Notes: generated by a model from the letters alone, not told the origin. DNA of 64,000 bases from Alphaproteobacteria bacterium (GCA_965225945.1 CBDDBZ010000039.1:224001-288000), one strand, 5' to 3'; positions 13,984-28,418 are shown, numbered from the stretch's first letter. A program made the numbers and translations.

Positions 13984-14768
13984 CTTGCCTATCCGGTTAT
14001 CACCCACACCCACTATATGTAGTGTGTCTCCTTGGACTGCAGGCAAGGGCCGGCGCAGGCGCATTGAGGAGGCGATCCGGCTAATTCTTGATTGTTCTGA
14101 AAACCGAACCGGAGTTTAATTCACGTCACGTACTTAACATCGGGGGACGGAACGGTGGCGACCAAGGGAAAAACGAAGAAACCCACGGCCAGACGGGAAG
14201 CTGCTGATGAAACGACATCGTCTGAGCGATTGACGGCACTAGTCGAAGAAAGCGACGCGCTGGCACGAATCGTTGCGAAGAACCCGTCCGCGCCTGTTAG
14301 TCTCCTGCGCGTTTTGAGTCGCAGCGAAGACGAAGCGACACGCAAGAACGTGATCCTCAATCCGTTTACTTCATAATGACGTATTGAGCGAACTTGAAAA
14401 CCAGTTCCACAGAGCTATTTGTGAATAATCGGGCACTCGAATCCTACAATTCAATGAAGCTCTGATTTCTGGAATATTCCATCGGTGTCGTTCACCTCCG
14501 ATTTCAGATAAATTTCAATGAAGTGACGGTCCTTTATGCAACGTGGGTTTTGCCAAATCCGACTCAATGATTAGGATTTCCACCACGCTAAAGTGTCGCC
14601 TAAAAGGCGCTACGTCCGAGTCCCTGCTCGGCATCGCCGAGAGATATCTCCGCTTCGACCTGCACCGAGCTTTACTCAGGAACATATCAAGAAATTCGGA
14701 GCCCATCCTGCTTTAACCAGATAGGGACGCTACATATAGTGGGTGTGGGTGATAACCGGATAGGCAAG
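13984..14768 (+). mobile_element. Non-autonomous IS1595 (ISSod11-type) cassette, copy 1 (indels and chimeric right end)
   Basis: TIR CTTGCCTATCCGGTTATCACCCACACCCACTATATGTAG; 8-bp TSD GAATAATC (13976-83 / 14769-76); passenger ORF from 14155 is frameshifted. Confidence 0.9.
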
Positions 14769-14779
14769 GAATAATCAGT

Positions 14780-15459
14780 GGCTCAATTCGTGAATTGTAT
14801 GCATTAGTGATAGAGTGCCTGGAACGTCAGGAGGTTGGGTTATGGACGGCAAGGGTTTCCAGGTGTGGCTTTCGGCGGCGCGCGGGCTGACGCGCGCGCA
14901 GCGGCGCGAGGCGCTCGCGGGCTGTCGGGCCGGAGCGAGGGCGAGGCATCGAAGGCCGCGATCGAGCTTGGTGTGGAATGCCGTCCGAGTCCCTGCTCGG
15001 CATCGCCGGAGATACGCTGGCTGTCGTTCGGGGCGTCGCTGGCGAAGGGGGAGACGCTCGGCGGCGCGCTCGACCTGCACGGCGTTCCGCTGGCGACCGG
15101 TTTCTGGCGGCGGCGCGGAGCGATTCGGAGGTGCTCAAGGGGATCGTGGAAGCGGACGAGACCTACGTCCTGGAGAGCCGGAAGGGCGCGCGCGGGCTGG
15201 GGCGCAAGGCACGGCGGCGGGGCGGCAAGGCGAAGAAGCGCGGCCTCTCGCGCGAGCAGGTACCGGTTCTCATACGGTCAGCGCGGTGCTGCCCAGGGTC
15301 GATGCGGCGGCGCTCACGGCTGCCCTCGACCCGGTGGTCGCGAAGGACGCCCTGCTGGTCTCCGACGGCGGCGCGAGCTACCCAGGCGGGGTGAGCCACG
15401 AAGCACTCAACCGCTCGATGGGGGAACGGGTTCGGGGCGATCTGCATGTGCAGACGGTA
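14780..15459 (+). mobile_element. Partial, scrambled IS1595 (ISPna2-type) copy
   Basis: Starts with the TIR GGCTCAATTCGTGAATTGTATGC; near-identical in blocks to 30129-31153, with deletions and patches of cassette sequence; right end missing. Confidence 0.85.
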
Positions 15460-16541
15460 CGTCCCTATCCGGTTAAGGCAGGCAGCGCTCCCTGCGAGCC
15501 TTGTATACCGTCGACCAGTTCCCTTGTAGGTGATGGTCGGTCGGGTCATGGCGCGGTGCAACACGAAATCGGCAAGGTCGAAGATGCGTTTGCGCCGGTT
15601 GAAGCGGTAGTTCCATTCCCGGACGTAGCGCGGCAAATGCTTGGCGCTCACCCCGTGGTAGGTTCCGTTGAGCCACGTCTTCACGTTGGAAAACAGGACA
15701 TGGACGACCGGCATGAGCTGCTCGGCGTTCTTGCCTTGGCCTTGAACGACGGGCTGGTGGCGATAAGTATCGCCAAGCTTGGCGTAACTCTTGAAAGCGT
15801 CGCTGTCGAGGCGGCTTCCCGGCTTCACCGAGGCGCGCACGAAGTCGCCCAACTCACGGGCGGTGGCCTCGGGCAGGATGGCGAGCCGCGCGGCGCCGGC
15901 GGCGAAGCCGCTCCCCTTGATGCCCTTGCCCGACCCGACCGGCCACTTCTCGACCGCCATCACCAACAGGCTCTTGTTCGGGTTGGAAAGCCCGCGCCCC
16001 CGGCTCTCCGGCTTGCCCCGCCCGCCGTAATAGCTCTCGTCGACCTCGACCAAGCCCTCCAGCGGGAACTCCGGGCGCTCCGTCAGGGCATGGCGCAGCT
16101 TGTGGGCCATCAGCCAGGCGGTGTCGTAGCGCAGGCTCAACTCTCGCGACAGAAACAGCGCCGAGACCCCGCGCTTGTCGCGCCCCATCCACCACGCCGC
16201 CAGGAACCATTTGCGCAACGGTGTGCGGGTGCGGTGGAAGACCGTGCCCGCGGTCACCGATTCCTGATGGCCGCAACCGGCGCATTCGAAGACCCGCGGC
16301 CGCGTCTTCAATTGGTAGTTCCGCCTCTCGCCGCAACGCGCGCAGACGTAGCCTTGCGGCCAGCGCAGCCGAGCCAGCGCCTCGATGCAGTCCGCCTCCG
16401 ATCCATGGCGTTCGAGGAACTCCAATATCCCGCTCATCGAATAGTCCTCCAAAAGCTCCAGCCGATGCGATCAGCCTACACCTCTATGGAGAACATATCA
16501 AGAACATTCGGAGCCCATCCTGCTTTAACCAGATAGGGACG
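15460..16541 (-). mobile_element. IS1595 family (ISSod11 group) insertion sequence
   Basis: TIRs CGTCCCTATCCGGTTAAGGCAGG / CCTGCTTTAACCAGATAGGGACG; transposase from 16452 with Zn ribbon (CARCG, CAGCG), EVDESY, SDAFKSY and YVREWNYRFNRR; one extra G near the C-terminus. Confidence 0.92.
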
Positions 16542-17577
16542 ATCAGTTAAGATGTCTAGCACGCGTACAAAGGTCTCAGCGTGGCTTTCAAGAAGTCTTT
16601 GAAGTATTTGGGCGCGTTTAGGAGAGGCGCTCTTGATTGTGGCGGCAATGACATTAGGTATCTGTTGGTACAAGCCGTAACTAAGAATTATTAATTGTGA
16701 CAATTCTGGATCAAGAATGCCAATCCTACCTGCATTATATCTATAAAACGGGATATCTAACATATGCGTGCTTTCCAGCCATTCAAAGTTTGTGCCGTCT
16801 TCACTTCGCTCTTGGATGGTGCTTGATAAGCCAGACACCTTTGCCCACAAATTATGAAGCTCGGCTCTGAAGCCAGCGACCATAACGCGCCGTTCCCGTT
16901 CTTCTAATTCTCCTTCACGGCGCCTTGCTGCCTCTTCCTGCGCGTTTGCAGCCTTTCTCTGTTGGTCAGCGTTAAAGATCAATGTGAGAATAATTCCACC
17001 AAATCCGGCAAGGGCACCTATGGTAGTCGCTAGTGCCTTCTCGTCGTTCCAAATTCTCTCCCAAGCCGGCGGAGATCCCAGAAAGAGAACTGCCAAAACC
17101 GCCACTAACCACGATACGAGAGTTCTTGACTTGGTCTTTATTTTTCAGTATCCGCGCGTGCATAGTGGGAAGAATTGCACGTGTGTCTGATGGTCGCGTT
17201 AAGGTGATACAGTTTCTGTGGTTCGTGTAGCCATCCTAAGTATACCGCCCGAGTGAGGCATTCGCGAGTCCAACATCCTCTTAGGCCGCCTCTAATAGCC
17301 ATCACTAGCCGATTCGAAGTTTTCGGCCACTAGGAATGGTGCTGTCGGACGCTGGCGCGCTGGTGGAGCGGTGTATTTTCGACCGCGACTTGCCGCCGGA
17401 CAGATGTTCGCGGTTCCAGCGTCCCCCAGCCCGACAACCCCGGTTTAAACGGCGATGCACGGTCCTTGGCGGGAGAACCGCGGTCGTCAGGTGGCTTTAT
17501 CGGATTTATAACCCAACGTTCGCCCAGGTCGCCATGTAGGCTGTCACATTTATCGTGATCACAAGCCGCACAAACTA

Positions 17578-17746
17578 GGGGACAGTATATCAATTCCTTG
17601 ACGCTCCCGCCCTGTCCCGTAGGGTGGCGACATGGCTCGTTTGGCACGTGTCGTGGTCCCGGGCGTGCCGCATCACGGCCCCCAGGCCCACCCGCGAAAG
17701 GACGTGTCGAGGAGATAAGGCAAGGACGAAAATGGCATACTGTCCC
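17578..17746 (+). mobile_element. Internally deleted RAYT (Y1 transposase) mini-element
   Basis: Inverted ends GGGACAGTAT (17579-88) / ATACTGTCCC (17737-46) enclosing an ATG at 17632 that encodes MARLARVVVPGVPHH, the typical RAYT N-terminus. Confidence 0.65.
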
Positions 17747-18213
17747 TTGTTTCAGGCTTACTCGATTCTCTCGTTAGACAATAGCTTCTTTAAATCTCTG
17801 CCCCGGTTGTAATTCGAACCAATTCCCAGTCGCCCATAACGGTCTTGATAGGAGAGATGCTGAGAGCCAAGCTCTAAAGGCGGCCACGGGCGCAATGCCT
17901 TCCGGTATCTCAACGTCAACAGGTCGTGAACTTTTGTTGCATTAAGATTTACAATGGCTTCCTGTAGCAGCAATCCCAATTTCCGATTTCGCCAAAATCT
18001 AGAGACGCTACCGCCACTCGGTAATTTGTCCCCCATTTCAAGGTTATAGTCCCGCACTAGCTCATTTGCGGTAACAAAGCCGTATAACGCTGACAATATG
18101 AGGACACGATTCTTAGTATCCTCTCTGACATCTTCATAAGAAAGTTTTGCCTCACGATACAGGTTTCCCTGATAGCGTTCGTAGGCAGGTAAGTATTCGA
18201 TCGATGAACCGTC

Positions 18214-18968
18214 CTCGCCTATCCGGTTATCACCCACACCCACTATATGTAGTGTGCACCCATTTTCCTGAGTAAAGCTCGGTGCAGGTCGAAGCGGAGA
18301 TATCTCCGGCGATGCCGAGCAGGGACTCGGACGGCATTGTAGCGCCTTTTAGGCGACACTTTAGCGTGGTGGAAATCCTAATCATTGAGTCGGATTTGGC
18401 AAAACGCCACGTTGCATAAAGGACCGTCACTTCATTGAAATTTATCTGAAATCGGAGGTGAACGACACCGATGGAATATTCCAGGAAATCAGAGCTTCAT
18501 TGAATTGTAGGATTCGAGTGCCGGATTATTCACAAATAGCTCTGTGAACTGGTTTTCAAGTTCGCTCAATACGTCATATGAAGTAAACGGATTGAGGATC
18601 ACGTTCTTGCGTGTCGCTTCGTCTTCGCTGCGACTCAAAACGCGCAGGAGACTAACAGGCGCGGACGGGTTCTTCGCAACGATTCGTGCCAGCGCGTCGC
18701 TTTCTTCGACTAGTGCCGTCAATCGCTCAGACGATGTCGTTTCATCAGCAGCTTCCCGTCTGGCCGTGGGTTTCTTCGTTTTTCCCTTGGTCGCCACCGT
18801 TCCGTCCCCCGATGTTAAGTACGTGACGTGAATTAAACTCCGGTTCGGTTTTCAGAACAATCAAGAATTAGCCGGATCGCCTCCTCAATGCGCCTGCGCC
18901 GGCCCTTGCCTGCAGTCCAAGGAGACACACTACATATAGTGGGTGTGGGTGATAACCGGATAGGCAAG
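18214..18968 (-). mobile_element. Non-autonomous IS1595-type cassette, copy 2 (755 bp)
   Basis: 43-bp TIRs (1 mismatch); TSD GAACCGTC (18206-13 / 18969-76). Confidence 0.93.
18489..18797 (-). CDS. Leucine-rich-repeat-variant (LRV/HEAT-like) small protein, cassette passenger
   Basis: Repeats VAKNPSAPVSLLRVLS, VILNPFTSYDVLSEL and FVNNPAL; basic N-tail; GGGGGA RBS. Confidence 0.7.
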   Translation of the reverse strand: MATKGKTKKPTARREAADETTSSERLTALVEESDALARIVAKNPSAPVSLLRVLSRSEDEATRKNVILNPFTSYDVLSELENQFTELFVNNPALESYNSMKL

Positions 18969-19169
18969 GAACCGTCTTGCATTCCAATATCAACCCCCGG
19001 AGGAAAAGCAAATCGGCGACCCAACTCAGCGCGAGCTTCCCGTAGTAGACTCTGCGAATCGGGGCTTAAGAATCGGGGCTTAAGAGAGGCAGTGCTGAGG
19101 CCGTTATGTCGTATGGCACATCTCCGGCGTCTCGTTTCTTTTTGCAACAAGGGATCAATATGATAACTG

Positions 19170-19910
19170 TCACTCAAGTTCTCTCTTTTCACAAAGTTGG
19201 TTCATGCAGCATTGAGTACAGTTAGGAGCCGTCTCGCTACACCACTGGCGACCAATAATCCACAGAGCAGGATCAATTCCTCCTGGATAATCCGGATTGA
19301 GTGCTGCTGCGGCGCGGAGAGCTTCAGCTTCACTCAATCTCTGCGCAACGCCAAGCCGGTAGAGGACGCGTTGCACATGAACATCAGGTTTGACATCCAT
19401 TACGCTTTGGTCAGGAAGCTGCACGTGCCAACATCGCTCAAGCAAAATAACTGCCATGGATGCAATGCCCTCACCGACCCCATGAATACTTCTGAATTCA
19501 CGCTTGACTTGATGGGCCGTCTTGCCACGCCAGATTAGTTCTGCATTGCCACCGAAGTCGTTATACACGAGCCGTGCTAGGTCAAAGATCGTTCGCGGCG
19601 CATCATTCATGTATCTCGGTTTCTTGGGTATTCGGGACAACGCCTCTGAAATCTGCTGCTCGGTCATTTGAGCTAGATACTCGGAATTGAGATGACCGAG
19701 ATCTTGGCGAAGCCAGAATGGGATCGTCCATATGATCTCCGCCCTTGCCCCACGATCGAGTACGACAGCGAGAGAAAACGCAAACGGATCTTCGGCAACG
19801 AGCCGTGTCGCATCCGGCTCAAGAGTGGGCATCAGCGCCTCTGGCGGCACCGAAGCAGCGAACCGGAGGAGTTCCTCCCTGACAGGGCCCAAGCCACTCT
19901 CTGAGACCAT
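19170..19910 (-). CDS. HhH-GPD DNA glycosylase (endonuclease III-like) with C-terminal 4Fe-4S motif
   Basis: HhH motif FRSIHGVGEGIA; PDVHVQRVLYRLG; CSETAPNCTQCCMNQLC. Confidence 0.85.
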   Translation of the reverse strand: MVSESGLGPVREELLRFAASVPPEALMPTLEPDATRLVAEDPFAFSLAVVLDRGARAEIIWTIPFWLRQDLGHLNSEYLAQMTEQQISEALSRIPKKPRYMNDAPRTIFDLARLVYNDFGGNAELIWRGKTAHQVKREFRSIHGVGEGIASMAVILLERCWHVQLPDQSVMDVKPDVHVQRVLYRLGVAQRLSEAEALRAAAALNPDYPGGIDPALWIIGRQWCSETAPNCTQCCMNQLCEKRELE

Positions 19911-19988
19911 CACGGCGGACCTCACAATCTTTCTCCCGAGAAACGATATCACGGAAATTGGGGAGAGGAAAAATGGGGGCAGCGCGCT

Positions 19989-20864
19989 GGGGGTCAGGTC
20001 TTGCATCTTGCGCTTTGCTACCGAATGATCGCCTCGTGTCGAGACCGCTCCGCATCGAATACCCCGGCGCGCTCTACCACGTGACGAGCCGCGGCAACGC
20101 GCGCGCCGACATCGTCGGGGGCGACGACGATCGCCGGCTCTTCGTCGACGTGCTGGGCGCGGTGGTCGAGCGCTTCGCCTGGATCTGTCATGCCTGGTGC
20201 CTGATGGACAATCACTACCATCTGCTCGTCGAGACGCCGAGGGCGAACCTGTCGCGGGGCATGCGGCAGCTGAACGGCGTCTTCACCCAGCGGCCGACCG
20301 GACGCACGGGCGGACCGGGCACGTCTTCCAAGGCCGCTACAAGGCAATTCTGGTGGAGCGCGAAGCGCATCTGCTCGAGCTTTGCCGCTATGTGGTGGTG
20401 AACCCGGTCCGCGCTGGCGTGGTGGCGCGCGCGGGGGACTGGCGTTGGAGCAGCTACCGCGCCACCGCCGGCCACGCGCCCGCGCGCGCCTTCGAGCACA
20501 GGGAGTGGATCCTGGCGCGGTTCGGCGCCGATGGCCGGGCGGCGCTCCGTGCCTACCGCCGCTTCGTGGCCGGCGGGGCCGGCACGGCGAGCCCCTGGGA
20601 CTCGCTGGCGGGCCCGGATGTCCTGGGTGGGGCGGCGTTCCGCGACGGCCTGCTGGCGGCGGCGGGCGCGGCGAGTTCGAAAGTGCCGCGGCGCGCGCGG
20701 CGCATGACCCCCGAAGCGCTGGACGCACTCCGCGCGCGCCTACCGCGACCATGGCTACACGCTCCGTTAAATCGCCGACAAGGCGGGCCTCCACTACGGC
20801 TCCGTCTCCAAGATCATCAAGGCATGGGAGGGAAGAGCGCATGCAAGAAGCAAGACCTGAACCC
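19989..20864 (+). mobile_element. RAYT/Y1 (HUH) transposase pseudogene with inverted ends
   Basis: From 20036: SRPLRIEYPGALYHVTSRGN, CLMDNHYHLL, GHVFQGRY, NPVRAG, WSSY and a C-terminal HTH; frameshifts and an internal TAA; IRs GGGTCAGGTCTTGCATCTTGC / GCAAGAAGCAAGACCTGAACCC. Confidence 0.88.
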
Positions 20865-20919
20865 TTTGTTGTGACCCCTTTGTTGCCATGCGGGCATAAC
20901 TGCCCTCTGACAGAGCTGA

Positions 20920-21369: not shown

Positions 21370-21679
21370 AGCCTCCCCCGAGCCTTGGTCGGGTCGAGAT
21401 TACCGCCTTTTCCGGATTTCGGGGGACTGTTTCCCGTTTCCTCGGCGCCGGGTCACGCCAAACGCACCGAGAACCACGAACCGCCCTTCATCTCACGGGT
21501 TGTGGGATCGCCCGGGTCCAGGGGGCTCGCCGTCCCGCCGCCGACGATGCCATGGCGCGCCATGCCCTCCATGAAGCGGCCGACGTGGCGGTCTCGCGCC
21601 CGAAGCGCGACGGCGCGCTCGGGGCCTCGCCGTGCGGCGCCCGAGGTGGTTTTTCAACCGACCCACAGTCCTCCACGAG

Positions 21680-21765
21680 GCGTCGAGACCGCTCCGCATC
21701 GCGTTTCCGGGCGCGCCGTATCACCCGACCCGCCGCGCCAACGCGCGGGCCGACATCGCCCTCGA
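21680..21765 (+). pseudogene. Decayed RAYT N-terminal remnant
   Basis: SRPLRIAFPGAPYHPTRRANARADI, similar at DNA level to 20038-20112. Confidence 0.65.
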
Positions 21766-22313
21766 ATCGGGACGGCCGGCGCCTTGCCGATTCGAGGGCC
21801 ATATCGCTGAGTCGCAATTCCGGCGCGCGATGGGTCGACCCGGCCCGCCCGCCAAACGATTGTGAAACCGGGTCGAATATTCGGCGAGATCGGGCAAGAG
21901 GCCGAGAGCCGCCGAGAGCCGCCATGGCCGACCGCGACAGCGAAGCCGCGCCGAGGGTGATCGCCGCCGACCCGCCGGTCCCCGTCGGTCGCCGTCGCTC
22001 CCCGCCGCCGGGGTTTCGGGGGCTCGCTCGCGCCTTTCCACCGCGTCTCGCCGCCGCGCCTCGAGGCCACGCACCCCCCTCATCGAGAGCCGAGAACCAC
22101 CCGCCCTGGGCCGCGAGAAACCCACCGCGGGGGAAGTGATTTTACAACGGCCCGATCAAAAGCTTTCATTTCCGGGCGATTTTGAGCGATTTTGAGGCAA
22201 AATGAGGCCACGTTTCGGCCGCCGCGGGACCCCGATGCACCGATCCCGACGACGAAACCGGGGTCCGCCGAGCCTGTCGGGCGACATTCATCGACAAGAA
22301 AATCTCGCGGGTC

Positions 22314-22654: not shown

Positions 22655-24366
22655 GTAACCGGGGCAAAAGGCCGGGCATTTTTTCGTGCAGGGGATTCCT
22701 TTTCGGCGCGAGTTGTGAATCAATCCCCGCATGGCCGAATCGCCCCTGGACGTTGATGCTCTGGATATCGCGGCCCTCAAGGCGTTGGTGTTGGAGCTGC
22801 TTGAGCTGGGCGCGGCACGGGATGGCGAGATCGCCGCGCTACGGGAGGAGAACCGCCGTCTCGAGGGCCTGAACGGTCCCCCGAATATCAAGCCCAGCGG
22901 GATGGACGAGAAAGCGCGCTCGCGGGCACAGGCGAAGGCGGGGCGGTCTGCCAACAAGGCGCGGCGCGGGGCCAAGTTGGGCCGGGTCTCGATTGATGAG
23001 AAACGCGTCGTCGACGTCGATGCGCCGGCGGGCTCGCGCTTCAAGGGCTGGGAGGATTACCTGGTCCAGGATCTGCTCTGCCGGCCGCATAACGTTCTGT
23101 TGCGCCGCGAGCGCTGGCTGACGCCGGACGGTCGTTGCCTGGTGGCGCCCCTGCCGGCGGGGACGCGCGGTCATTTCGGCCCCGAGCTTCGCCGTTTCGT
23201 GTTGGCCCAATAGCACGGCGCGCAGACCAGCGTGGAACGCTTGGCGAGGCTGTTGCGCGATCTCGGCGTCGATATCTCCAAGCGCCAGGTGATGCGGCTT
23301 TTGAACGAGGGCCAGGAAGCTTTTGCCGCCGAGGCGCAAGCGGTGCTGCGCGCCGGCCTGGAAACCGCGCCCTGGATCAGCGTGGACGACACCGGCGCCC
23401 GGCATGCGCACCGCAATGGGGTGACAACCCAGATCGGCAACGATGCGTTTACCTGGTTCAACACCGGCTTTTCCAAGAGCCGGTTGAACTTCCTGGAGCT
23501 GCTGCGGGCCGGCCATGGCGACTATGTGATCAACCAGGCGGCGTTCTCCTACCTGCGCAAGCGCAAGCTCGCCGGAACCGTGATCGCTCGGCTGGCCGAG
23601 GCGGAGAACCACCACTTTGTCGGCGAGGCCGCCTGGATGGTCCATCTCGAGCAGCTTGGGATTGCCGCGCTCAAAGTCCATCCCGATCCAGTCAAGGTCG
23701 CCACCGAGGGCGCGCTGTGGGGGGCCATCACCGCGCACGGGTTGCTCAATGGCGGCCCGGATGGCACGGTTGTTCTGAGTGACGATGCCGGCCAGTTCAA
23801 CGTCGATCGCCACGCGCTCTGCTGGGTTCATAGCGAACGGCTGATCCACCAACTGGACGCTTTCAGCGAGGCTCAGCGCCGGGAGAAGGAACGCATCCAA
23901 GCCCGGCTCTGGCGGCTCTACGCCGATCTGAAAGCCTATCGCGAAAAGCCGACGCCAAGGCGGCGAGGCCAATTGTATCGCCGCTTCGAGGCTCTGTTCA
24001 CCACGAAAACAGGCTTCATCACCCTGGATCGGCTGCTGGCGCGTATCCACACCAACAGGGAGGAATTGCTGGTCGTCCTCGAGCGCCCGGAGGTGCCGCT
24101 CCACACCAACGGCTCGGAAACCGACATCCGCGCCATGGTCACCCGGCGAAAACTGTCCGGCGGCACCCGCTCGCAAGCCGGCAAGCAGGCCCGCGATACC
24201 TTCATCGGGCTGATGAAGACCTGCCGCAAGCTCGGGATCTCATATTGGCATTATCTCGGCGACCGTCTCCAGGTCCCGAACGCAACACCGGTGCCATCTC
24301 TACCCGGCCTCGTCAGACAACGATGCATGGAAATGGCCTAGCCGCCCGGTCTTTTGCCCCGGTTAC
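22655..24366 (+). mobile_element. IS66 family (single-ORF, ISBst12-like); transposase 22731-24341 with an in-frame TAG at 23211
   Basis: TIRs GTAACCGGGGCAAAAGGCCGGGC / GCCCGGTCTTTTGCCCCGGTTAC; flanking repeat CCTTCGCTG; VDDTG, LCWVHSER and PLHTNGSE motifs. Confidence 0.93.
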
Positions 24367-25335: not shown

Positions 25336-26057
25336 TCCCGCGCCCCCATCATGGTCGTGAGCGAGCGCCGCGCGATGCCGTCGGCATCGAAGTTCGCGTC
25401 GTCGAGCCAGGCGGAGATGAGGCCGCGGACCTCCGGCCACTCCGCCTCGGTGATCGAATACCAGGCGGTGTCGCGGTTTCGGCCCTTCACGATCATGTGG
25501 TTGTGGAAAATTCCCTCGAAGCGATGGCCGAGGCGCCGCGCGGCGTTCCTCGATTTTTCGTTGAGGGCGTTGCAGCGCCACTGAAGGCGCCGATAGCCGA
25601 ACTCGTCCATGGCGTAGGACATCAGCAGGAACAGGGTCTCGGTCGCCGCCCGGGTCCGCTGCATCTCGGGCGCGAACCAGATCCCGCCGATCTCGATCAC
25701 GCCCTGCGCCGGCGCGATGTCCAGATAGCAGGCCATGCCGTTCGCGCGCCCGTCGCGCTTGGTTCGGAAGGCGTACCAGACGTATTCGAAACTTCCCACC
25801 ATCTGGGCGAGCCAGGCATCGAACTCGCCTCGCGTCGCCCAGGGCCCCCAGGGTAGATACTCCCAGATGCGCCGCGCCTCCTCGGTGGCGTGCGAGGCGG
25901 GATGGAGTTCCCCGGCGTGCCGCGCCACATCGAACGCCTCGATGCGCACGAGCTCGCCCTCGATCGGCGCGCGGGCGGGGATGCGTCCGCTCGGCGGCCG
26001 CGCTACCGGGTCGCCCGAGAGCGGCCGGCGATAGGGGGTTTCGGCCTCGATCGTCAT
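25332..26057 (-). CDS. GNAT family protein (ribosomal-protein acetyltransferase-like)
   Basis: IEIGGIWFAP, GYRRLQWRCNALNEKS and KGRNRDTAWYSI motifs. Confidence 0.88.
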   Translation of the reverse strand: MTIEAETPYRRPLSGDPVARPPSGRIPARAPIEGELVRIEAFDVARHAGELHPASHATEEARRIWEYLPWGPWATRGEFDAWLAQMVGSFEYVWYAFRTKRDGRANGMACYLDIAPAQGVIEIGGIWFAPEMQRTRAATETLFLLMSYAMDEFGYRRLQWRCNALNEKSRNAARRLGHRFEGIFHNHMIVKGRNRDTAWYSITEAEWPEVRGLISAWLDDANFDADGIARRSLTTMMGARE

Positions 26058-26470
26058 CCCTCCCCCGCTCCGAGGCGGCGGAACTTCGGCATGGTGATCT
26101 GCTCGCTCGCCCGCTCGAAGAAGACCTCGACCCGCTCGCCGATGCGGACGCTGTCGGGATCGTCCGTCACCACGTTGCTCATCATCCGGACGCCCTCGTC
26201 GAGCTCGATCAGGGCGACGACATAGGGCACCTCGTCCTTGAAGCCGGGGTGGGCGGGGCGTCGCGCGACGGTGAAGGAATAGATCGTGCCCCGGCCCTCG
26301 CAGGTCAGCCAGCCGCCGATTTCCTCGTGGCAATGGGGGCAGAGCAGGCGGGGCGGGAAGTAGGCCCGCCCGCAGCCGCCGCATTGGGGCACGTCCAGGC
26401 GGCCTTCCCGGGCGGCGTTCCAAAACGGCGCGCTATCGGGATCGATCGTCGGCAGGGGCTTCTCGCTCAT
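26054..26470 (-). CDS. Zn-ribbon OB-fold protein (DUF35), thiolase partner
   Basis: PFWNAA, CGGCG, CPHC, GTIYSFT and PYVVALIELDEG motifs. Confidence 0.9.
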   Translation of the reverse strand: MSEKPLPTIDPDSAPFWNAAREGRLDVPQCGGCGRAYFPPRLLCPHCHEEIGGWLTCEGRGTIYSFTVARRPAHPGFKDEVPYVVALIELDEGVRMMSNVVTDDPDSVRIGERVEVFFERASEQITMPKFRRLGAGEG

Positions 26471-26479
26471 CCCTCCAAG

Positions 26480-27234
26480 CTTGCCTATCCGGTTATCACC
26501 CACACCCACTATATGTAGTGTGCACCCATTTTCCTGAGTAAAGCTCGGTGCAGGTCGAAGCGGAGATATCTCCGGCGATGCCGAGCAGGGACTCGGACGG
26601 CATTGTAGCGCCTTTTAGGCGACACTTTAGCGTGGTGGAAATCCTAATCATTGAGTCGGATTTGGCAAAACGCCACGTTGCATAAAGGACCGTCACTTCA
26701 TTGAAATTTATCTGAAATCGGAGGTGAACGACACCGATGGAATATTCCAGGAAATCAGAGCTTCATTGAATTGTAGGATTCGAGTGCCGGATTATTCACA
26801 AATAGCTCTGTGAACTGGTTTTCAAGTTCGCTCAATACGCCATATGAAGTAAACGGATTGAGGATCACGTTCTTGCGTGTCGCTTCGTCTTCGCTGCGAC
26901 TCAAAACGCGCAGGAGACTAACAGGCGCGGACGGGTTCTTCGCAACGATTCGTGCCAGCGCGTCGCTTTCTTCGACTAGTGCCGTCAATCGCTCAGACGA
27001 TGTCGTTTCATCAGCAGCTTCCCGTCTGGCCGTGGGTTTCTTCGTTTTTCCCTTGGTCGCCACCGTTCCGTCCCCCGATGTTAAATACGTGACGTGAATT
27101 AAACTCCGGTTCGGTTTTCAGAACAATCAAGAATTAGCCGGATCGCCTCCTCAATGCGCCTGCGCCGGCCCTTGCCTGCAGTCCAAGGAGACACACTACA
27201 TATAGTGGGTGTGGGTGATAACCGGATAGGCAAG
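26480..27234 (-). mobile_element. Non-autonomous IS1595-type cassette, copy 3 (755 bp)
   Basis: Perfect 43-bp TIRs; TSD CCTCCAAG (26472-79 / 27235-42); three substitutions seen versus copy 2. Confidence 0.94.
26755..27063 (-). CDS. LRV/HEAT-like small protein, cassette passenger
   Basis: Identical to 18489-18797 except one D to G change. Confidence 0.7.
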   Translation of the reverse strand: MATKGKTKKPTARREAADETTSSERLTALVEESDALARIVAKNPSAPVSLLRVLSRSEDEATRKNVILNPFTSYGVLSELENQFTELFVNNPALESYNSMKL

Positions 27235-27248
27235 CCTCCAAGCTCCCC

Positions 27249-28418
27249 TCAGAGCCGCGCCAGGATACAGGTGGCGCCGCTGGAAAGCGTGCCGCCGGTA
27301 CCGTGCGCCATCGCCGTTCGCGCGTCCGCGACTTGCCGGGGGCCGGCCTCGCCGCGAAGTTGGCGCACCGCCTCGATCACCAGGAAGATGCCGTACATCC
27401 CCGGATGCGCGTAGGAGAGGCCGCCGCCGTTGGTGTTCATCGGAAAGCTTCCGCCCGGTCGCGAACGGCCGTCGGCGAGGAAGGGGCCCGCCTCGCCGCG
27501 GCCGCAGAATCCCAGCGCTTCCAAGCTCATCAACACGGTGATGGTGAAGGAATCGTAGATCTCCGCCACCTCGATATCGCCCGGCGCCATGCCCGCCATG
27601 GCGAAGGCGCGGCGGCCCGCCTGCTCCGCCGAGGTCAGCCAGGCGACGTCCGCCATCGCGGCGATGGTGACGTGGGTCATGCACTCGCCGAAACCGAGGA
27701 CGAGAATCGGCGTGGTCGCGAGGTCGCGCGCGCGCTCGACCGTGGTCATGACGACGGCGCCGCCGCCGTCGGTCACCAGGCAGCAATCGCGGCTATGCAG
27801 GGGATCGGCGATCATCGGGCTCGCCAGCACGTCCGCAATCGAGAGCGGCTCGCGCAGCATGGCCGCCGGGTTGAGCCGGGCCCATTCCCGGGCCGATACC
27901 GCGACCTCGGCCAGGTGCTCAGCCCTCGTGCCGTAGAGATGCATGTGCCTTTGCGCCGCCATGGCGTAAGAGCCGAGCGGCGTCGGCAGGCCCCAGGGGA
28001 CCTCGAACTGCAGGCTGAAGAGGGTCGGCCGCCCGCCGAGGGTGCGCGCGCGGGCCGAGCGCTGGTCGGAGCCATAGAGGATCAGCGCCACCTCGCAGAC
28101 GCCTTGGCTGAGCGCCATGGCCGCGTGACCGACGTACATCTCGAAGGAAGCGCCACCGATGTTGGTGCCGTCGGCGTAGCTTGGGCAGAGGCCCAGGTAT
28201 TCCGCCATCGCGACGGGCGCCATGTTGCCGGGCCGCGGCTGGCCCCAGGCGCCCGCCACCAGCAGGCCGTCGACGTCGCCGAGCCCGAGACCGGCCTCCG
28301 CCAGCGCGGCGCGGGCCACGCCGGCCTGCAGGTTCATCACCGACGGGCCGCCCGCCACCTTGCCGTCGACCAGCGGCGCGTCCGCCACGCCGACGATGAC
28401 CGGATCCCTGGCCGCCAT
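27249..28418 (-). CDS. Thiolase family protein (SCP-x type)
   Basis: DCCLVTDGGGA, EIYDSFT, NTNGGGLSYAHPG and AHGTGG motifs. Confidence 0.92.
   Translation of the reverse strand: MAARDPVIVGVADAPLVDGKVAGGPSVMNLQAGVARAALAEAGLGLGDVDGLLVAGAWGQPRPGNMAPVAMAEYLGLCPSYADGTNIGGASFEMYVGHAAMALSQGVCEVALILYGSDQRSARARTLGGRPTLFSLQFEVPWGLPTPLGSYAMAAQRHMHLYGTRAEHLAEVAVSAREWARLNPAAMLREPLSIADVLASPMIADPLHSRDCCLVTDGGGAVVMTTVERARDLATTPILVLGFGECMTHVTIAAMADVAWLTSAEQAGRRAFAMAGMAPGDIEVAEIYDSFTITVLMSLEALGFCGRGEAGPFLADGRSRPGGSFPMNTNGGGLSYAHPGMYGIFLVIEAVRQLRGEAGPRQVADARTAMAHGTGGTLSSGATCILARL

Follow-up and report, generated by a model that had tools for sequence, protein, structure and literature searches.

A transposase-free derivative of the IS1595 family that carries a conserved gene for a small LRV_2 protein in an alphaproteobacterial genome

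A 64,000-nt stretch of a draft genome of an Alphaproteobacteria bacterium (C39:224001-288000, hereafter the window; 6.27 Mb in 39 contigs) holds three copies of a 755-bp unit that has the long terminal inverted repeats (TIRs) and the target-site duplications (TSDs) of an insertion sequence (IS) and yet contains no transposase gene. Its only supported gene, by open reading frame (ORF) and Pfam scans, encodes a 102-aa protein of the LRV_2 repeat family. How does such a unit multiply, and does the protein work for the element or for the host that carries it? We propose that the unit is probably a non-autonomous derivative of an IS1595-family IS, of the mobile insertion cassette (MIC) kind, which is mobilized in trans and carries a protein that belongs to its element family.

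The unit is far more abundant than the window suggests. A BLASTN search of the 755-bp sequence against the whole genome, in which partial matches were counted if they reached at least 150 bp, returned 66 full-length copies and 21 partial pieces, several of the latter being units interrupted by other ISs; unit-type termini number 160. The first-pass annotation of the window had placed its three copies correctly, with the perfect 43-bp TIRs of copy 3 (26480-27234) and the separate duplications CCTCCAAG, GAACCGTC and GAATAATC of copies 3, 2 and 1, but three understates the number in the genome. Perfect 8-bp TSDs flank 50 of the 66 full-length units, each at a different site, and because flanks and TSDs are distinct, chance and assembly duplication, the latter an artefact the annotation had considered, are ruled out. 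Exactly 755 bp is the length of 46 units, 22 of which equal the consensus while another 18 are one base off, indicating that the burst was very recent; copies 2 and 3 differ at three of 755 positions (99.603% identity), as had been counted before. A recent burst has brought the genome to roughly 80 units, which occupy about 0.8% of it. The unit is of foreign origin, with a GC content of 51% against 66.3% for the genome and a protein that is found at E <= 1e-20 in only 3 of the 401 genomes of the class, this genome included.

The unit descends from an IS1595-family (ISSod11-like) IS. Both of its ends read CTTGCCTATC, of the form nnnGCnTATC, and next to one TIR, and running on into it, an IS1595-family transposase has left its final 31 codons (SLLGIAGD...YSGCG), a relic from which descent from an IS follows. 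The relic had been passed over when all ORFs but the 102-aa one were set aside as not credible: a 66-aa ORF at 26496-26696 ends in SLLGIAGDISASTCTELYSGKWVHTTYSGCG, and over its last 31 residues it shares 71% identity with the C-terminal end of the transposase of a resident IS, IS-A, described below. The broader assignment made in the first-pass annotation, a non-autonomous IS1595/ISSod11-type element with 8-bp duplications, the CTTGCCTATC ends and no transposase, stands, as does its view that the one credible gene is of LRV type with a basic tail. Read in the direction of the gene, the unit consists of a 43-bp TIR, a leader of ~128 bp, the 102-aa ORF, ~230 bp of non-coding sequence and the second TIR. 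The parts of copy 3 are as follows.

26480-27234, minus strand (strand of the gene): copy 3 of the unit, 755 bp, two positions off the genome consensus.
26472-26479, no strand: left TSD of copy 3, CCTCCAAG, read from the sequence.
26480-26522, no strand: 43-bp TIR on the side of the transposase relic, beginning CTTGCCTATCCGGTTA, 100% complementary to the other TIR.
26499-26591, minus strand: transposase relic, 31 codons, continuing into the TIR.
26523-26754, minus strand: non-coding and relic segment of 232 bp between gene and TIR, ~210 bp of which are absent from the ~545-bp short form of the element.
26755-27063, minus strand: gene of the 102-aa LRV_2 protein, GTG start, supported by Pfam, homologues, dN/dS and structure model.
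27071-27076, minus strand: putative Shine-Dalgarno sequence GGGGGA, 7 nt before the start, kept in the consensus of 45 related elements.
27092-27130 (approximate), minus strand: candidate internal promoter TTGTTC-N17-TTTAAT with a weak -35 element, suggested by conserved blocks.
27192-27234, no strand: 43-bp TIR on the side proximal to the gene, found by inverted-repeat search.
27235-27242, no strand: right TSD of copy 3, CCTCCAAG, read from the sequence, 6 bp below the stop codon of a thiolase-like gene.

Which enzyme could move a unit of this kind? Several ISs of the IS1595 family reside in the genome, and the best candidate among them is IS-A, which is 1105 bp long, encodes a transposase of 339 aa (192.6 bits on NF033547, whose cut-off is 75, with DDE_Tnp_IS1595 and Zn_ribbon_IS1595 domains) and is present in ~13 copies, none on this contig. 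At both kinds of IS-A end 35 of the 43 terminal bases agree with the unit, and 18 of the first 20 are shared; the first 16 bases of the outer end are identical to those of the unit, and the transposase-proximal end agrees at 30 of its first 32. The target logo, palindromic and AT-rich (G-W-T-Y-R-A-W-C), is common to the unit (160 termini) and IS-A (21 termini). At C26:1253-3136 a unit adjoins an IS-A, and GTTCGATC is found at both outer sides and between them, so that one 8-bp target has been used by two successive insertions. Moreover, two genomes of another family (G213 and G029) carry IS-A at 99% amino-acid identity, and both hold unit DNA that is 99% identical. An IS-A-type enzyme is the probable helper. 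According to the mechanism we propose, its DDE transposase would recognize the 43-bp TIRs in trans and insert the unit at AT-rich palindromic GWTYRAWC sites, producing the 8-bp duplications.

IS-A itself also occurs in rearranged forms with 8-bp TSDs: a form of 1631 bp at C14:57696-59326, C1:44070-45700 and C15:7573-9203, one of 1658 bp at C38:177697-179354 and C33:95821-97478, and one of 1121 bp at C19:59701-60821 and C34:188810-189930. The 1631- and 1658-bp forms consist of the full 1105-bp IS and an inverted partial copy (transposase residues 177-339 and the outer end), the 1658-bp form having in addition a tandem duplication of nine codons (VAECGDPEV) in the transposase gene. The 1121-bp form has identical inverted ends of ~125 bp, and its transposase is without the first 14 residues.

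The 755-bp unit is the rarer form of a wider family. Homologues of the protein number 234 at E <= 1e-3, mostly of exactly 102 aa and 74-99% identical, and most of them sit on contigs of 450-1500 bp, the signature of a repeat that breaks assemblies. At 12 loci on genome contigs, from Alphaproteobacteria metagenome-assembled genomes (MAGs) and one genome labelled Dehalococcoidia, the TIR core lies ~165 nt upstream of the ORF in every case, and a second TIR is present in all 10 that are not cut by a contig end. Both TIR cores were found at 60 of 80 metagenome loci; 54 of these elements measure 516-582 bp, three 462 bp and three 754-755 bp. The usual form is an element of ~545 bp with the second TIR ~25 bp past the stop codon, and the 755-bp form is a young sub-lineage, at 95-100% amino-acid identity, with an extra ~210 bp that include the transposase relic. 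An LRV gene and a transposase gene within one pair of TIRs were found at none of the 12 genome loci and none of the 80 metagenome loci. Truncated units in G029 and in a further genome, G002, were considered as parental forms and rejected, being cut by other ISs. Unit DNA is present in 8 of 41 relatives, and near-identical units appear in sequencing runs of 12 studies, several of them labelled sponge metagenome. One Rhodospirillales MAG contig carries a long-form unit of 1028 bp whose LRV gene is broken by an AT-rich insertion of ~270 bp, which is possibly another miniature element.

We read the 755-bp unit as a chimera, in which the widespread short element (TIR, leader of ~125 bp, 102-aa gene, TIR) is joined to the terminal ~210 bp of an IS that resembles IS-A. 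It could have arisen when sequence was deleted between a short element and an IS-A-like IS next to it, a simple origin since IS-A and the unit are repeatedly found adjacent to each other.

The 102-aa ORF is a real gene. Between lineages dN/dS ranges from 0.16 to 0.58 in 21 pairs, and among 1341 pairs of 53 distinct coding sequences, which extend down to 67% amino-acid identity, the median is 0.29 (5-95% range 0.19-0.50) and all values are below 1. The frame is 99-104 aa long at 61 of the 80 metagenome loci, the others being cut by contig ends (7) or broken or only partly aligned (12), and the position of the start is kept while the start codon alternates between ATG, GTG and TTG behind a conserved GGGGGA. 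Within the genome, in contrast, the variants of the ORF comprise 1 synonymous and 9 non-synonymous changes, an intact 102-aa frame is missing in 10 of 66 units (8 with a shortened or extended frame, 2 without the context of the start codon), and older units are full of indels. Copies within the genome decay neutrally, whereas the ORF is constrained between lineages. The earlier inference that retention of the ORF implies selection is thereby borne out by the comparison of lineages and not by the local copies on which it was built: retention in 56 of 66 units is no evidence of selection because the copies are too young, and the dN/dS test it proposed across copies was informative only once extended beyond this genome. 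Purifying selection between lineages together with neutrality among copies is the pattern expected of a trans-acting transposon protein. The term 'gene-delivery cassette' used at first is misleading, as the gene is constant in the whole element family and is not a variable cargo.

The older copies deserve a remark of their own. Three old units (C24:106414-107275, C28:77653-78519 and C29:77311-78160) are at 80-84% identity and have each grown by ~100 bp through many small GC-rich insertions, an unusual, insertion- and GC-biased form of decay. These three, the most divergent of all, are nearer to the consensus than to each other and have no disabling mutations in common. None of the ORF-defective variants occurs twice among the units, which gives no information on whether defective units transpose.

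The protein matches Pfam LRV_2 (PF25591) at 33.4 bits, above the gathering cut-off of 27 (E 4.5e-8), and scores 19 bits against the older LRV model PF01816, below its cut-off of 21.6. It has NP-containing helical repeats of roughly 24 residues, and E15, D59 and D75 are invariant or nearly so. An AlphaFold2 model built on an alignment of 86 sequences reached a pLDDT of 82.4, exceeding 90 over residues about 30-100; it supersedes an earlier model from 19 sequences (pLDDT 62.4, no Foldseek match) and bears out the basic tail and repeats of the first description. The predicted structure has a disordered basic N-terminal tail (residues 1-21) followed by seven short helices, and we read it as a three-repeat, LRV/HEAT-like alpha-solenoid. 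Its top fold matches are HEAT, ARM and alphaRep repeats and the LRV protein 1LRV (Z 5.4-6.3, within the non-specific range for helical repeats); 1LRV was matched with a Foldseek probability of 0.63 and a TMq of 0.47, and with Z 5.4 and an rmsd of 5.1 over 80 residues, whereas generic HEAT/ARM proteins scored up to 6.3. These matches are compatible with the modelled alpha-solenoid but non-specific. A predicted complex of the LRV protein with the IS-A transposase scored 0.23 and 0.00 (mark 0.32), which is uninformative in either direction.

LRV_2 repeat proteins contain up to 19 modules, as in P0121 (1371 aa, 19 matched stretches), and the 102-aa protein is equivalent to one such module; the gene of the element may have started as one repeat captured from a large protein of this kind. 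Matches on plasmids, sought by tblastn, were only LRV_2 modules of ~40% identity at the N-termini of larger cyanobacterial proteins, an unrelated context.

Several findings weigh against the reading of the unit as a trans-mobilized element with a protein of its own. The BLASTN search, which had been expected to count the copies and to reveal an autonomous parent, supplied the count, but the genome holds no autonomous IS with the exact TIR of the unit, so that mobilization by IS-A would be a cross-mobilization and the true partner may be lost. Nor do IS-A and the unit track each other in abundance: in G029 at least 100 copies of IS-A are accompanied by nothing but broken pieces of the unit, G213 combines dozens of IS-A with 6 units, and this genome has ~13 IS-A against ~80 units. 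A promoter scan called no promoter before the 102-aa gene. Contigs from three RNA-labelled runs (X7, X10 and X18) span 26493-27221 and not the flanks, and strand, ends and level cannot be read from them; depth over the unit exceeds that of its flanks more than 100-fold in the corresponding DNA run, so that carry-over of DNA could account for these contigs, and expression of the gene is something we infer. The protein has no functionally characterized relative and no solved structure in the searches made (PDB sequence profiles, with no match at E < 0.8; PHROGs, PADLOC and NCBIfam, with no match), and LRV_2 modules abound in large repeat proteins unrelated to it (at E <= 0.001 there are 5525 representatives, many of them with 5-19 modules). 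None of the results ties the protein physically to transposition. Finally, a cargo of use to the host should be under purifying selection between lineages just as well, and for this reason a protein that serves the element and one that serves the host are inseparable in silico.

How do other explanations fare? The IS at 15460-16541 in the window, IS-B, had been put forward as a possible helper at first. It is an intact IS1595-family IS with ~17 copies, its left end contains CCTATCCGGTTA, as had been noted, and ~45 bp of an IS-B end lie within one TIR of copy 1, so that the two have met physically. Its ends, however, match the unit at just 17-22 of the 43 terminal positions and at 14-15 of the first 20, the four outermost bases differ (CGTC in the unit against CTTG), as does everything beyond position 17, and its transposase is only ~36% identical to that of IS-A, whose ends match far better and whose choice of target is the same. 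IS-B is indeed an IS1595-family member, but we consider it quite improbable as the mobilizing IS. It lies in the window among the other copies and remnants of the unit.

13984-14768, plus strand: copy 1 of the unit, 785 bp, decayed and inverted, with several indels; TSD GAATAATC.
14977-15014, no strand: isolated fragment of 38 nt, identical to unit positions 88-125, outside any copy, found by repeat search and BLASTN.
15460-16541, minus strand: IS-B, IS1595-family IS of 1082 bp, ~17 copies, with ends CGTCCCTATC(C/T)GGTTAA.
18214-18968, minus strand: copy 2 of the unit, TSD GAACCGTC; its 102-aa gene (18489-18797) is intact and encodes exactly the consensus protein.

A more searching question concerns the protein. 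We hold it quite possible, if tentatively, that it acts for the element, by promoting or tuning the borrowed transposase or by protecting the element. With the same anatomy, the protein could instead be an ordinary passenger without a role in transposition, any benefit of which (host-associated protein binding, dosage) goes to the host, with selection acting on host lineages; this appears somewhat unlikely to us. Alpha-solenoids are generic scaffolds for protein binding and the fold matches are all of HEAT/ARM type, LRV_2 modules occur in thousands of non-mobile proteins, near-identical units turn up in runs of 12 studies, several labelled sponge metagenome, and a contact of the protein with the transposase is not among the results. 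Yet one would expect a gene of use to the host to appear now and then in a fixed single copy, and this one was never outside inverted repeats at any locus examined, all 12 genome loci among them; its distribution in the class is very patchy, and the nearly all non-synonymous variants and wrecked older units indicate that the host does not police individual copies. A bolder version of the element-serving role, in which the protein would be the hitch-hiker's own effector that captures or modulates the transposase of another IS, or blocks host control, so that the unit out-multiplies its helper, is unlikely as matters stand; if true, it would be a strategy at the level of proteins that has not been described for the MITEs (miniature inverted-repeat transposable elements) or MICs of bacteria. 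That the ORF is non-functional, and conserved through constraint on DNA or RNA or through the youth of the copies, is very improbable. The copies in this genome are indeed too young to show selection, 22 of 46 being the consensus, and the 3' non-coding part (26523-26754) folds slightly better than its shuffles (z-score -2.0), but an Rfam scan of the unit gave no match, and the dN/dS values, the constancy of ORF length, the Pfam score above cut-off and the confident fold contradict it. Hardly credible, lastly, is an autonomous short element with the 102-aa protein as a new minimal recombinase: the protein is the element's only gene and is invariably present, and its residues E15, D59 and D75 hardly vary, but the modelled structure, a solenoid of three all-helical repeats, bears no likeness to nuclease or recombinase folds, the TIRs, 8-bp TSDs and transposase relic all indicate an IS1595 DDE enzyme, and an IS-A-type IS is present in every checked genome with 99%-identical units. 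We retain the reading of the unit as a trans-mobilized IS1595 derivative whose protein belongs to the element family.

The insertions have left their mark on host genes. Copy 3 occupies the gap of a few bases that separates a thiolase-like gene (27249-28418, minus strand) from its ChsH2/DUF35-like partner (26054-26470), and all three point the same way. On the minus strand its TSD reads CTTGGAGG and supplies GGAGG before the ATG of the ChsH2-like gene (26468-26470); the target of copy 3 is, by this reading, the predicted ribosome-binding site of the partner gene, which the duplication regenerates. Copy 2 splits a YaaA/DUF6884-like gene (17758-18213 and 18969-19192). In copy 1, a decayed chimera with the piece of IS-B in its TIR, frameshifts shorten the ORF to 73 aa (14155-14376). 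An open frame of at least 250 aa runs across 29 of 50 reconstructed empty sites and across 857 of 1000 random ones; at 66% GC this is a weak test, and it suggests a bias of insertion toward non-coding sites. A 401-bp fragment of another high-copy IS lies between two inverted units at C33:252803-254713 and again at C38:118397-120226, and the first of these composites is flanked by its own 8-bp TSD, GTTGATTC; this arrangement looks like a compound transposon made of non-autonomous units.

The genome is heavily loaded with ISs. Besides IS-A and IS-B there is a third IS1595 type with ~20 copies, 36% identical to IS-B, and a 310-bp segment that lies between two units (for example at C39:142782-143091) recurs at ~60 places in the genome at 99-100% identity, which points to a further IS family at very high copy number. 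In the window, two diverged IS200-like Y1 transposase genes (PF01797) at 19958-20874 and 21632-21865, 82% identical over 77 nt, may be of the REP-associated tyrosine transposase type, and the same IS-rich stretch holds an IS66-family transposase (PF03050) at 22731-24341, apparently in two frames (22731-23213 and 23232-24341). The minus strand of 16476-20006 carries ORFs of 209 and 278 aa without a Pfam match and the YaaA/DUF6884-like gene that copy 2 interrupts; bordered by IS-B and by an IS200-like gene, this stretch may be an acquired islet.

Non-autonomous transposons of bacteria are usually pictured either as empty shells, the MITEs, or as carriers of arbitrary cargo, the MICs, and this family fits neither. 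Its short form of ~545 bp would use the transposase of another element, and still the same 102-aa protein is kept under purifying selection in every lineage; a single genome can hold ~80 copies, and the element crosses between bacterial families at 99% identity. Should the protein work for the element, hitch-hiking elements can evolve trans-acting factors of their own, and one transposase, one 43-bp end and one 102-aa protein would make a small, tractable system for the competition between an IS and its parasite. If it serves the host, the dosage of the gene is set by transposition. In practice the element breaks assemblies, splits operons and genes and can form compound transposons.

ISs of the ISSod11 group have ends of the form nnnGCnTATC and are 1000-1100 bp long. 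The unit resembles this group and the IS1595 family in its 8-bp TSDs, its CTTGCCTATC ends and a relic that matches the C-terminus of the transposase of the 1105-bp IS-A. It differs in having no transposase, an IS1595 enzyme being encoded by IS-A and IS-B and represented in the unit by the 31-codon relic only, which makes it a derivative and not a member IS. The 8-bp duplications, found here at 50 of the 66 full-length units, are described for the IS1595 family in an excerpt of PMC8101967, where monophyly of the ISSod11 group was not recovered. Transporter ISs (tIS) are members of the same family which carry passenger genes together with a transposase (Siguier et al. 2009, as cited in a passage of PMC3129680). 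The unit, like a tIS, has a gene unrelated to transposition between its inverted repeats, but tIS keep their transposase, whereas LRV gene and transposase were found together at 0 of 12 and 0 of 80 loci; without a transposase the unit is neither an IS nor a tIS. MITEs are described in passages of PMC3129680 as non-coding miniature derivatives of ISs, and MITEPye1, in an excerpt of PMC11578231, is an example. MITEs and the unit are alike in small size (523-755 bp), in having TIRs and TSDs, in their high copy number and in depending on a resident IS, and both to some degree favour non-coding AT-rich sites. MITEs, however, are non-coding, whereas a conserved gene makes up 41% (long form) to 57% (short form) of this element, and since the unit is protein-coding, as purifying selection and the Pfam match indicate, it is not a MITE. 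With the LRV protein of Azotobacter vinelandii (1LRV) and the Pfam LRV and LRV_2 families the 102-aa protein has in common the LRV_2 match, the NP-containing helical repeats and the presence of 1LRV among the non-specific fold matches, but it is a single module of roughly 80 residues with a basic tail and without an Fe-S domain, unlike most LRV_2 proteins, which are large and contain 5-19 modules. Full-text literature searches, ISfinder and supplements lying outside their scope, turned up no LRV-carrying cassette and no comparable IS1595-derived MIC.

MIC231, which derives from IS231 of Bacillus cereus, carries varied cargo at low copy number. The unit is unlike it in that one small gene, under purifying selection, is constant in every lineage examined and that ~80 near-identical units reside in one genome. 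As outlined in the part of PMC3129680 that refers to De Palmenaer 2004, MICs have features that recur here: inverted repeats with a cognate pair in an autonomous IS (both IS-A ends agree at 35 of 43 bases, and the first 16 of the outer end are identical), no transposase but a gene unrelated to the DDE enzyme (here that of the 102-aa LRV_2 protein), TSDs of the length of the parent family, and presumed mobilization in trans. For the unit, such mobilization is presumed from its distinct TSDs, the target logo it has in common with IS-A, the reuse of one 8-bp site and the composite with a TSD of its own. The element works like a MIC, one whose gene is fixed and selected family-wide, which is MITE-sized and which reaches MITE-like copy numbers.

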